Below are positions 15,401 through 28,826 of a stretch of 28,826 nucleotides of DNA, one piece after another. Source of the stretch: a virus (taxonomy: Duplodnaviria; Heunggongvirae; Uroviricota; Caudoviricetes); IMG/VR virus record IMGVR_UViG_2541047699_000005. One strand, written 5' to 3'. Numbering within the stretch: the stretch's first letter is position 1; each line of letters begins with the position of its first letter. The position numbers were made by a program, and so were the translations under genes. The notes below the pieces were generated by a model. The model was not told the DNA's origin. It was given only the letters and a program-made list of their open reading frames with translations, and did not search any database.

Positions 15401-15513
15401 GTTTTCTCCTCATGGACACCACCAGTGCATAAAGCAGCAACTGAAGTGGTTTACTGAATTTGGCCACCTGAACAGAGGTGATATGCTCACCTCAGAACAA
15501 CACAGGTGCCATA

Positions 15514-16661
<1,148 letters not shown>

Positions 16662-16800
16662 CTCGGTGGCCAGTTTTTGTTGACCACTTCAAACAAACAG
16701 CCCGACAGCATCAGAGACGCTGGCAGACCTGCATACAGATAAACGCCAGCAGTGAGCAAACCGAAACCGATCAGCCCGGTCATATCAGTAATAAGCTGTT

Positions 16801-22059: not shown

Positions 22060-22275
22060 TTACTCTCCCCGTGCAGCCTTACGACGGTCCTCTCTGATTT
22101 TGAAATACAGGTTAGTCAGATATGTCAGGAAGCCCAGAACCAGACTCCCCAGTACACCAATCGCAGCCCACTGTGACGGACTGACCTGATCAAGCCACTG
22201 TAAAAACCAGTAGCCAGCACTGCCTGCGGAGGTGCCGTAGGCAATGCCCGTTGAAATTTTATCCATGGATTTCAT
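22060..22275 (-). CDS. S: Class II holin (phage 21 S-type pinholin)
   Basis: In-frame Met gives [71 protein letters not shown] (71 aa), with two transmembrane domains and the dual-start Met-Lys-Ser-Met motif; GGAGGTG SD upstream. Confidence 0.85.
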
Positions 22276-22412: not shown

Positions 22413-22440
22413 GCCCGTATCCATATGCGGGCTTTTTTTT
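22413..22440 (+). terminator. Plus-strand intrinsic terminator (hairpin plus T8)
   Basis: gcccgtat-ccat-atgcgggc stem-loop (one G-U pair) followed by eight T; the orientation is opposite to all neighbouring genes. Confidence 0.5.
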
Positions 22441-22446
22441 GCATGT

Positions 22447-22476
22447 AAAAAGGCCCCAACACATGTGCGTGGGGCC
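22447..22476 (-). terminator. Minus-strand terminator-like hairpin back-to-back with the plus-strand one
   Basis: Minus RNA ggcccca-(11-nt loop)-uggggcc followed by UUUUU, in the leader between the tRNA operon and the holin gene. Confidence 0.4.
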
Positions 22477-22676
22477 TGAGAGTATACATGGTTTCAGTCA
22501 ACTGCATGGTGCCGGGTGCCTCCCGGTGAATTCAGTACCAGCACCTGAATCCGCGATTATCCCATATACCTACTCGCTGATTGCCCCTCCGCACAGGGGG
22601 ATTCACCATGCCAGTTTCTTTTAACAAACTCCCCGCAAAACAGACAACTGTCAACCGTCTGAATTGTGAGACATTT

Positions 22677-22701
22677 AAAAAAAAGGCCCGCAAAAGCGAG
22701 C
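22677..22701 (-). terminator. Intrinsic terminator ending the tRNA operon
   Basis: Minus RNA ggcucgc-UUUU-gcgggcc followed by seven or eight U, starting 15 nt after the CCA end of tRNA-Arg(UCU). Confidence 0.55.
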
Positions 22702-22715
22702 CGGGAAAAATAAGT

Positions 22716-22792
22716 CTGGCGCGTTGTACTGGATTCGAACCAGTGACCGATTGCTTAGAAGGCAATTGCTCTGTCCGGTTGAGCTAACAACG
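22716..22792 (-). tRNA. tRNA-Arg (anticodon UCU), CCA encoded
   Basis: Hand-folded cloverleaf: acceptor GCGTTGT/ACAACGC, D-stem GCTC/GAGC, anticodon stem ATTGC/GCAAT with loop CTTCTAA, T-loop TTCGAAT, discriminator G, CCA. Confidence 0.85.
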
Positions 22793-22805
22793 CAGGGTAC
22801 AGATA

Positions 22806-22882
22806 ATGGACCGCCATCGAGGACTCGAACCCCGCGCAACCAGCTTCGAAGGCTGGTGCTCTATCCTGATGAGCTAATGGCG
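22806..22882 (-). tRNA. tRNA-Arg (anticodon UCG), CCA encoded
   Basis: Hand-folded cloverleaf: acceptor CCGCCAT/ATGGCGG, D-stem GCTC/GAGC, anticodon stem CCAGC/GCTGG with loop CTTCGAA, T-loop TTCGAGT, CCA. Confidence 0.8.
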
Positions 22883-22889
22883 GTATGTG

Positions 22890-22965
22890 ATGGTGGCCCT
22901 TGCTGGATTTGAACCAGCGACCTGGCGATTATGAGTCGCTCGCTCTCACCTCTGAGCTAAAGGGC
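22890..22965 (-). tRNA. tRNA-Ile2 (anticodon CAU, lysidine-type, reads AUA)
   Basis: Cloverleaf with anticodon loop CTCATAA; overall sequence GGCCCTTTAGCTCAGAGGTGAGAGCGAGCGACTCATAATCGCC...CCA is very close to E. coli tRNA-Ile2 (ileX) as recalled, so it is read as Ile rather than Met. Confidence 0.8.
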
Positions 22966-22974
22966 CGGGCGCAG

Positions 22975-23003
22975 GATAATAACGTTACGAAATCAATGTT
23001 GCA
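22975..23003 (-). promoter_or_regulatory. Candidate sigma-70 promoter of the tRNA operon
   Basis: On the minus strand: -35 TTGCAA, 17-bp spacer, -10 TATTAT, GC-rich discriminator (CCTGCGCCC); the predicted start is 2-3 nt before the mature tRNA-Ile 5' end. Confidence 0.45.
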
Positions 23004-23084
23004 AGCATTCAAAAATCACCTGGTTAAAAATCACCCTTAGCTCCTCCACCAGCGCATTCACCATGTCTATCCGAGATAAGTGGC

Positions 23085-23123
23085 ACAAAAAAACCCGCTT
23101 GTGGGCGGGTTTTGTTTGCTTTT
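23085..23123. terminator. Bidirectional intrinsic terminator downstream of the Q-like gene (candidate tR')
   Basis: Hairpin acccgc-ttgtgg-gcgggt flanked by A7 on one side and a T-rich tract on the other, about 70-90 bp downstream of the Q stop. Confidence 0.5.
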
Positions 23124-23164
23124 GCCATCACGTACAAAATCGGCAAAATATCAGATTTGCATGA

Positions 23165-23193
23165 AATATATGCCTTTCAATCTACTTTTGCAA
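23165..23193 (-). promoter_or_regulatory. Candidate late promoter (pR'-like) overlapping the end of the Q-like gene
   Basis: On the minus strand: -35 TTGCAA, 17-bp spacer, -10 TATATT. The predicted transcript would run about 70-75 nt to the terminator at 23085-23110, giving a short 6S-like RNA. Confidence 0.4.
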
Positions 23194-23872
23194 CACTTTG
23201 CTTTGAAAATGCCGCCTTTTGTTTTGAACGTGTTCTCATTACAAACAATAAAGCCTCACTATCCAGTCGTTGAAAAATGTGTTTCATTGCAACCCAGTGA
23301 CGAGTAAATGTTTTGGACCAGTTTTTAGTTGTCACTCCCGCCAGTAATGCCAGCTCCTGGTATTCATAACCTTCCCCACCAAAAAGTTCTGCTTTTACTG
23401 CCTGCGCCGCCAGCCAGATTAATTTTTTCAGGCGTTCCTGCGTTTTCCCTGCAATTTTTCTGGTACCGGATTGAGTATTAAATTCATTCCACGCCCACTG
23501 TGTTATCGCGATCTGATATTCCCAACAAATACTCCCGCCGTAACACCACAACAACCAGGCTTTATGATGCTCTTCAAGAGACAGCAAAGCCCGCCGCCAT
23601 GATGATGTCGAAAACTCAACCGGGCTGACCAGGGCAATTGATGAGCCATTCGCCAGTGATTGTTTTCCCGGGATTGGTGGATTATCCCGCGTTATCATTT
23701 TTCCAGTCACTTCATCGCGGTACCGGATTTTTTTTCGCCTGTAACGCCCTGTATCGAACATGGCATTCTCCTGCCAGGCTTCAAGCTGACCTTTTGTTGC
23801 CCCACTCAAATCAGCGGTGGCGATAATGAGCTGCTCACGCACAAACTGTAAATACTGGTTATTCATGCGCAC
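23177..23872 (-). CDS. Putative late-gene antiterminator Q-like protein
   Basis: 231-aa ORF immediately upstream of the candidate late promoter/terminator and lysis genes, in the position of quuQ in Qin-like prophages. Assignment is by position; I do not recognise the sequence as lambda Q. Confidence 0.55.
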   Translation of the reverse strand: MRMNNQYLQFVREQLIIATADLSGATKGQLEAWQENAMFDTGRYRRKKIRYRDEVTGKMITRDNPPIPGKQSLANGSSIALVSPVEFSTSSWRRALLSLEEHHKAWLLWCYGGSICWEYQIAITQWAWNEFNTQSGTRKIAGKTQERLKKLIWLAAQAVKAELFGGEGYEYQELALLAGVTTKNWSKTFTRHWVAMKHIFQRLDSEALLFVMRTRSKQKAAFSKQSVAKVD

Positions 23873-25725: not shown

Positions 25726-25881
25726 TTACTCCTCAGGTTCGTAGACTGTGAAGACAGCGACCTCCGTCTGGCCGGTTCGGATTCGTACCTCGCAGAGGTC
25801 TTTCCTCGTTACCAGTGCCGTCACTATGACGGTTAAACAGATGACGATCAGGGCGATTAACATCGCCTTTTGCTGCTTCAT
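25726..25881 (-). CDS. hok: Hok/Gef-family type I toxin (51 aa)
   Basis: MKQQKAMLIALIVICLTVIVTALVTRKDLCEVRIRTGQTEVAVFTVYEPEE, with an AAGGAG SD. It is nearly identical to the HokD/RelF sequence as I recall it. The ORF-track frame extends 19 codons upstream in frame to an ATG at 25938. Confidence 0.85.
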   Translation of the reverse strand: MKQQKAMLIALIVICLTVIVTALVTRKDLCEVRIRTGQTEVAVFTVYEPEE

Positions 25882-26134
25882 AGCCTGCTTCTCCTTGCCT
25901 TTCGGCACGTAAGAGGCTAACCTAGATTTGCCGTTCATAGATTGAGCCTCAGATTAATGTTAAGCGTCTTGCAGGACGCGTAATGTTAACTGGGGCTTTT
26001 CTCTATCTGCCTTTGGTGTTCATGCCTGAGGCAGATAGCCTCAAGCACCCGCAGCAATTCTACTTAAGTTAGATAAGCTTTTCTATGGTATTCTCTCAGC
26101 GTCCCGTAAATACAGTCTCGGCTCATCATTTTTA

Positions 26135-28579: not shown

Positions 28580-28826
28580 TCCATCACCTCCTGAAAGTTT
28601 CCCCGATAGAACGCCAGCACACGCTGCATAACTTCGCTCCTCCTGCTCTCACGACAAATTATGTTCTGGTGCCTGTCGTAGCGGCGCATTTCGCCGTCTG
28701 GTAACGACCAGATAAGGTCCGGATCAACCACTGCAGGTTTCTTCACCTTTGCCCTTGAGAGTTTTTTGCGAGCATTTTGCCAGTCCTTACGCGCCTGTTC
28801 AGACGGGAATAACCCGTAACCAGAGT
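28576..28826 (-). CDS. Partial CDS (C-terminal part only; N-terminus lies beyond the window end)
   Basis: The minus-strand frame is open from the window edge to TGA at 28578-28576 (...KPAVVDPDLIWSLPDGEMRRYDRHQNIICRESRRSEVMQRVLAFYRGNFQEVME), coupled to the next gene. Confidence 0.4.
   Translation of the reverse strand, partial: SGYGLFPSEQARKDWQNARKKLSRAKVKKPAVVDPDLIWSLPDGEMRRYDRHQNIICRESRRSEVMQRVLAFYRGNFQEVME

Follow-up and report, generated by a model that had tools for sequence, protein, structure and literature searches.

What is the run of three tRNA genes that this prophage carries between its antiterminator gene and its lysis genes, and what would it do at the place where Shiga toxin phages hold their toxin genes? 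The window, i.e. the whole stretch of 28,826 nucleotides that was analysed, is a lambdoid prophage, 99.96% identical to the one beside tRNA-Ser/mtfA in Escherichia coli M1/5, from which it is set apart by a 1252-bp insertion sequence (IS) and nine substitutions. The feature is very probably the ileZ-argN-argO tRNA cassette of E. coli lambdoid prophages, a discrete segment of ~330 bp (a 331-bp unit) that consists of the promoter pT, tRNA-Ile2(CAU), tRNA-Arg(UCG), tRNA-Arg(UCU) and an intrinsic terminator. The cassette is already known: the GenBank record of phage 933W gives the same interpretation, and identical loci in RefSeq are annotated as tRNA-Ile, tRNA-Arg and tRNA-Arg, so that the discovery value of naming it again is small. 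Our additions are limited to its neighbour, the small RNA STnc100, the definition of the empty stx site at the level of the base, prevalence figures, a footprint of the promoter, and codon statistics.

In the 28.8 kb of the window, ARAGORN detects three tRNA genes and no more; all lie on the minus strand, as Ile(CAU), Arg(UCG) and Arg(UCU) in that order, separated by spacers of 7 and 13 nt. The Rfam tRNA model matches the three with E-values of 1e-13 to 1e-9, and a chance origin of the matches is therefore excluded. The initial annotation had read Ile-CAU, Arg-UCG and Arg-UCU from the letters and had proposed a tRNA prediction tool for verifying folds and anticodons; ARAGORN indeed calls all three with the anticodons claimed. 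Each gene encodes its CCA end, and each is folded as a cloverleaf by both ARAGORN and Infernal. Single-sequence minimum-free-energy folding returns a cloverleaf for argN and none for the other two, as is usual for folding of this kind, and this was not counted against the tRNAs. Two mechanical open reading frames on the plus strand (22581–22787 and 22724–22912) overlap the tRNA genes and were rejected as genes.

The first tRNA (22891–22966, minus strand; Rfam 70.6 bits) has the anticodon CAU, from which alone ARAGORN labels it as a methionine tRNA. We place it with tRNA-Ile2 (the ileX/ileZ type) and not with the metT type, because it is a single nucleotide, in the D-loop, away from the ileZ of 933W, because its C4-G69 and C5-G68 pairs and its anticodon arm are those of K-12 ileX, whereas K-12 metT differs throughout the alignment, and because PGAP calls it tRNA-Ile at RefSeq loci that are 100% identical to the window. 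The ileX/ileZ alignment and the PGAP calls thus speak against Met identity. A tRNA-Ile2 with the anticodon CAU decodes AUA only after C34 has been modified to lysidine, and the pairs 4-69 and 5-68 are determinants for the modifying enzyme TilS. The window ileZ has the minority allele A16, found at 3 of 135 loci; the rest have T.

The second tRNA (22807–22883, minus strand; Rfam 56.2 bits) is of the argN type, with the anticodon UCG for reading CGA and CGG. It has a C1-G72 pair, A20, C35 and U73, and differs from the argN of 933W at four aligned positions; to our knowledge, the K-12 tRNA set holds no counterpart of it. The third (22717–22793, minus strand; Rfam 70.1 bits) is of the argO type, with the anticodon UCU for AGA and, by wobble, AGG. 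It aligns with the argO of 933W and with K-12 argU and is thus a homologue of the host tRNA; the anticodon loop, CUUCUAA, is identical in argO and host argU, and the stems differ. In E. coli tRNA-Arg, identity for ArgRS rests on A20 in the D-loop, C35 in the anticodon and a purine at position 73. Both Arg tRNAs of the cassette have A20 and C35, and position 73 is G in argO and U in argN. With the lowest score in the cassette, an unusual U73 discriminator, and degeneration or loss in many relatives, argN may contribute little. A further peculiarity of the window argO is the minority allele A15 opposite C48, seen at 3 of 99 loci; the remaining loci have G15, which pairs with C48, and A15 may weaken the tertiary folding.

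Where the cassette begins and ends is evident from alignment of the window with Stx2a_WGPS6, Nil3 and PPompW. Similarity extends from ~45 nt upstream of the first tRNA to just past the T-run of the terminator, and the flanks are unrelated; the cassette is therefore a discrete unit of ~330 bp. It is a mobile unit set into the late operon, with Q and the candidate pR' and tR' on one side and the lysis genes on the other. Its intrinsic terminator (22677–22702, minus strand), found by scanning, has its stem at 22702–22685 followed by U8. A G+C-rich stem of 7 bp (GGCUCGC/GCGGGCC) encloses a 4-nt loop, and the fold has an energy of -14.0 kcal/mol (z = -3.66). This terminator is kept in Stx2a_WGPS6, Nil3 and PPompW and is annotated as a terminator upstream of stx in 933W.

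At the other end, a consensus scan gives the candidate sigma-70-type promoter pT (22976–23004, minus strand), TTGCAA-17-TATTAT, which matches the consensus at 9 of 12 positions. The same element is annotated as "pT; putative tRNA promoter" in the 933W record, and a passage of an O157 genome comparison (PMC2858043) names a tRNA promoter upstream of stx2. Between the -10 hexamer and the mature 5' end of the first tRNA lie 9 nt, a G+C-rich discriminator (CCTGCGCCC, 22975–22967) that runs up to tRNA position +1. Since the -10 element ends 9 nt before the first tRNA, a transcription start 1–3 nt upstream of its mature 5' end is plausible from the sequence, close to the 2–3 nt that the initial annotation had suggested. 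Just upstream of the -35 hexamer (23006–23035, minus strand) lies a tandem direct repeat of ~15 bp, GGTGATTTTTAACCA / GGTGATTTTTGAATG, which is present as a single copy in PPompW; slippage may have duplicated it, or it may act as an A/T-rich UP-like element.

Conservation upstream of the tRNAs lends weight to pT. The comparison drew on 131 loci of IMG/VR, GTDB and reference phages with the ileZ pattern and 70 nt or more of sequence upstream. Their upstream 70-mers fall into 44 distinct variants, of which 41 are in the same register. Mean information was 1.94 bits per position in the -10 hexamer, 1.47 in the -35 hexamer, 1.31 in the spacer, 1.23 in the discriminator and 0.6 upstream of the -35, values to be read with the fact that the loci were selected by an exact 43-nt ileZ match and are close relatives, so that some of the conservation is inherited. 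The -10 is TATTAT in 38 of the 41 variants and TATCAT in three, and the TTG of the -35 is near-invariant (TTGCAG, TTGCAA, TTGCGG and others). The discriminator, although nearer to the anchoring tRNA, is more variable than the -10, and the pattern is therefore not a plain decay with distance from the anchor. We take it to be the phylogenetic footprint of a promoter, the case for pT activity being made by consensus and conservation. With a promoter and a terminator that are each supported by scan and conservation, the terminator by its fold as well, and both by the annotation of 933W, the description of the cassette as self-contained appears sound.

The position of the cassette, given earlier as between a Q-like gene and the lysis genes, is borne out by the genes on either side. 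Upstream lies the gene for the antitermination protein Q (23177–23866, minus strand; Pfam PF06323, E = 8e-91), which RefSeq names 'bacteriophage antitermination protein Q'. Downstream lies a class II holin gene of the phage 21 type (22060–22275, minus strand; PF04971, E = 9e-36), followed by DUF1327/YdfR, lysozyme and Rz genes, which match PF07041, PF00959 and PF03245, respectively.

Between Q and pT the scans returned two candidate signals of late transcription. A putative late promoter pR' (23165–23193, minus strand), TTGCAA-17-TATATT, overlaps the stop codon of Q and lies where the 933W record places pR'; a -10-like TGATATTTT can be read in the sequence at the beginning of the predicted transcript. 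Further on is a tR'-like hairpin with U7 (23085–23113, minus strand; reported by the scan on the plus strand owing to its symmetry), with a minus-strand fold of -26 kcal/mol (z = -3.6), and tR' terminators are annotated at the equivalent place in Nil3 and 933W. Our search of phage records returned no annotated pR' or tR' beside a Q of this type, and both elements are therefore put forward as predictions. Together they would yield a leader RNA of ~73 nt unless the RNA polymerase had been modified by Q. The leader region (23088–23161) gives full-length but sub-threshold Rfam matches to two sRNAs of Salmonella prophages, isrK (22.7 bits, E = 0.017) and isrJ (24.5 bits). By analogy with the early-terminated late-promoter transcripts of other lambdoid phages, the leader might be a regulatory sRNA.

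What lies on the lysis side of the cassette bears on its relation to Stx phages. The initial annotation had noted that only about 440 bp separate the tRNAs from the holin. The spacing is right, with 441 nt from the last tRNA to the ATG of the holin gene; the gap had been read without the gene that occupies 200 of these, the prophage sRNA STnc100 (22441–22640, minus strand). It matches Rfam RF02076 over model positions 1–206 of 206 with 140.2 bits, where the gathering threshold is 47 bits, and begins 45 nt downstream of the stem of the cassette terminator. The same family directly follows stx2B in 933W and Stx2a_WGPS6. RefSeq places a partial pseudo-CDS on the strand opposite STnc100 (about 22463–22621 in the window), which is probably an artefact. 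On the plus strand, a terminator, GCCCGTATCCATATGCGGGC followed by T8 (22413–22440), converges on the terminator of STnc100. At the equivalent place 933W has the antisense sRNA AsxR; beside STnc100 in the window, Rfam returned no match to an AsxR- or AgvB-like antisense sRNA at E-values up to 5. A different antisense RNA may end at the plus-strand terminator.

When the junctions are aligned, homology between the window and 933W ends at the T-run of the tRNA terminator and is found again from (C)TGTNTCACAATTCAG onwards, ahead of STnc100. STnc100 starts 45 nt from the terminator stem in the window and in six other toxin-free loci, and 1375–1376 nt from it in five Stx2 loci, statistics that cover the 18 of 69 loci matching a strict regular expression for the terminator. 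On the sequence, stx2AB is therefore an insert of 1.33 kb (1330 bp) placed precisely where the tRNA terminator gives way to STnc100; a TCTG(C/T)G-like motif lies at each of its edges, and the window represents the unoccupied site. The site just past the cassette terminator is thus an insertion point for morons, empty here and filled by stx2AB in Stx2 phages, and STnc100 is the right-hand edge of the empty stx site. The earlier claim that the cassette has the arrangement and position found upstream of stx accordingly holds to the base against 933W, with the same terminator and the same STnc100. The accompanying claim, that toxin genes are absent, agrees both with the empty junction and with a tBLASTn search of the whole window with Stx2A and Stx2B, in which the best E-value was 0.34 (Stx1 being covered indirectly, as a relative of Stx2).

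The empty site is the normal state. Our sample contained 69 loci, 68 of them distinct, with at least 3 kb of downstream sequence; STnc100 lies within 4 kb in 53 loci. Among the 68 distinct loci, stx2A is present in six and the other 62 are toxin-free, so that the toxin-free form is the majority and not an oddity. The significance of this part of the work is that the stx genes are seen, at base resolution, as an insertion between a conserved tRNA terminator and STnc100, and that the empty stx site is the usual condition in E. coli prophages.

The cassette is widespread in E. coli. At least 80% of the 331-bp unit is found in 2289 of 5426 complete genomes (~42%), at up to 12 places per genome, and 556 genomes have the full Q-to-holin arrangement of the window. 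In a set with one genome per species, a search for the 43-nt ileZ pattern without mismatch returned Escherichia, Shigella and two MAG contigs and nothing else. The tRNA locus of the window recurs with 100% identity in several human isolates, and many independent genomes carry its sequence unchanged or with an identity of 99% or more. The set of tRNAs that follows ileZ is highly variable among relatives: across IMG/VR and GTDB loci it may be Arg(UCG) plus Arg(UCU), Arg(UCU) alone, none, Lys(UUU) plus Arg, or Lys-Thr-Gly. In PPompW, the argN position is occupied by a mutated, Lys(UUU)-like tRNA. Prophage tRNAs are thus a common, experimentally under-tested addition to the decoding repertoire of E. 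coli.

Whether the codons read by these tRNAs are those that the prophage uses was addressed by comparing the annotated genes of the M1/5 prophage, the 99.96% identical relative of the window, with 31 core genes of the same chromosome. Per 1000 codons, ATA occurs 7.9 times in the prophage versus 4.0 in the core, AGA 5.7 versus 1.1, AGG 5.3 versus 0.2, CGA 6.0 versus 3.1 and CGG 13.0 versus 3.6. The five cognate rare codons are therefore 1.9 to 25 times enriched in the prophage (Fisher p 2e-3 to 7e-14). The initial annotation had directed attention to the late genes; the enrichment is real but larger in early genes, where the five codons together amount to ~46 per 1000, than in the late genes that follow the cassette (~34 per 1000), and the genes for the major capsid and tail proteins contain very few of them. 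These facts weaken an account that is limited to late genes. The data fit a general supply of the codons favoured by acquired DNA, without singling out the late genes. Acquired DNA is in general rich in rare codons, and this richness is no proof of a need for the cassette tRNAs.

Some other properties of the prophage are recorded here. The 1252-bp insertion (15441–16692) lies at the junction of the terminase and portal genes and is 100% identical to an IS3-family, ISEc52-like element elsewhere in M1/5. Given this location, the window copy of the prophage may be defective. A type I toxin-antitoxin locus, hok/sok, is present at 25726–26050 on the minus strand, with an Rfam match to sok (111.7 bits) at 25876–26050 and hokD annotated downstream by RefSeq. 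The last 244 bases of the window (28583–28826) do not align with the M1/5 prophage and mark a mosaic breakpoint in the early region.

For the cassette, we infer transcription from pT in the lysogen, processing and modification of the transcript, read-through by Q-modified polymerase, and an effect on fitness, as follows. In the lysogen, host sigma-70 RNA polymerase would start at pT, 1–3 nt before ileZ, and stop at the cassette terminator, giving a tricistronic precursor of ~290 nt. RNase P and 3' exonucleases would free the three tRNAs with their encoded CCA ends, and TilS would convert C34 of ileZ to lysidine, making it a reader of AUA. The two Arg tRNAs would add capacity for AGA and AGG and a Watson-Crick reader of CGA (also reading CGG) that is missing from the K-12 set. 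Upon induction, Q-modified polymerase from pR' would pass tR', the cassette terminator and the terminator of STnc100 into the lysis genes, and tRNA output would rise with phage copy number while the late proteins are made. The benefit would be better decoding of AUA, AGA, AGG, CGA and CGG, which are over-represented in this prophage and, more widely, in horizontally acquired genes. That the tRNAs are expressed from the lysogen and affect host translation, as proposed initially, is plausible, given the conservation of the promoter and the codon statistics.

Other explanations of the cassette deserve consideration. It might be mainly a platform for recombination and insertion, with tRNAs of marginal function: a conserved 330-bp block common to lambdoid phages without other kinship, whose homology serves the mosaic exchange of Q and lysis modules and which offers morons such as stx2AB a landing site just past its terminator. 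Much of what is described above would suit this role: the Q genes and upstream sequences next to the cassette are unrelated from one phage to another, homology is lost shortly before the -35 and shortly after the T-run, the junction of terminator and STnc100 takes up stx2AB as a clean insert of 1330 bp with the motif at both edges, and the tRNA content after ileZ varies widely. Against it, conservation of the tRNAs, the promoter hexamers and the terminator greatly exceeds that of the sequence around them, as would be expected of a selected function and not of passive homology, and the folds are intact at Rfam scores of 56–71 bits. We therefore consider it unlikely that the platform role is the main one, noting that both roles can coexist. 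That the cassette is instead a decaying remnant, without current function in this prophage, would be in line with the frameshift that makes the integrase gene a pseudogene in the near-identical prophage of M1/5, with the 1252-bp IS at 15441–16692, and with the minority alleles A15 in argO and A16 in ileZ. Yet three full cloverleaves with high scores, an intact promoter and terminator, and the recurrence of the sequence, at an identity of 99% to 100%, across many independent genomes make decay scarcely credible.

A different question is whom the tRNAs serve. They could be spares that replace or out-titrate host tRNAs lost to cleavage or depletion by anticodon nucleases, by colicins directed at tRNA-Arg, or under stress, with codon supply a secondary role. 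Lytic phages are known to encode tRNAs resistant to anticodon nucleases. Here, two of the three tRNAs are Arg isoacceptors with stems unlike those of host argU, and the tRNA sets at the locus turn over quickly, as an arms race might produce. Against this, the anticodon loop of argO is that of host argU, with no obvious escape change, and the anticodons match prophage-enriched codons, which the simpler supply of decoding capacity already explains; such a counter-defence role is accordingly very improbable. Taken more broadly, the proposition that the cassette is chiefly a host-benefiting or counter-defence module of the lysogen, not a codon helper of the phage, also strikes us as improbable, if somewhat less so. 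Were it true, a non-native tRNA-Arg(UCG) together with extra Ile2 and Arg(UCU) would reprogramme the translation of acquired virulence and fitness genes rich in rare codons in hosts of the ExPEC type, or buffer attack on tRNA-Arg; the G+C-rich discriminator would point to control by growth rate, and the turnover of tRNA sets to selection on the decoding needs of the host. We thus retain the reading in which the cassette tRNAs would supply decoding capacity for the rare codons of prophage and other acquired genes.

The nearest characterized system is 933W (NC_000924, 21082–21408), whose record lists Q, pR', qut and two terminators and, after them, pT, ileZ, argN, argO and a terminator, ordered as in the window. 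Window and 933W also share the promoter TTGCAA-17-TATTAT and the hairpin of the terminator, and the window cassette is 91–93% identical to those of Stx2 phages; the comparison with stx-phage tRNA clusters that the initial annotation had proposed thus identifies a cassette of the 933W type. The differences lie on either side. In 933W the terminator is followed by stx2AB, then by STnc100, AsxR and nanS-p, and then by the holin, whereas in the window it is followed, after 45 nt, by STnc100 and directly by the holin. The Q proteins belong to different families, that of the window (PF06323) having 229 aa and that of 933W 157 aa. The toxin-free relatives PhiR49_2, vB_EcoS-611R1 and Nil3, and the prophages of E. 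coli M1/5, UPEC129 and NCTC11151, are 95–100% identical to the window from Q to holin, including the tRNAs and STnc100, and show essentially no difference from it at the tRNA locus. Compared with the host genes ileX/ileY and argU of K-12, the prophage ileZ and argO have the same anticodons and overall sequence, but are clustered under one promoter and have diverged stems. In phages 21, Sf6, ST64T and SfI, tRNA genes are also found downstream of Q in the same slot, but these are for Asn and Thr. A passage in PMC3636060, citing Schmidt et al. 1997, describes tRNAs downstream of Q as suppliers for rare codons, which is the role that we favour for the cassette of the window.
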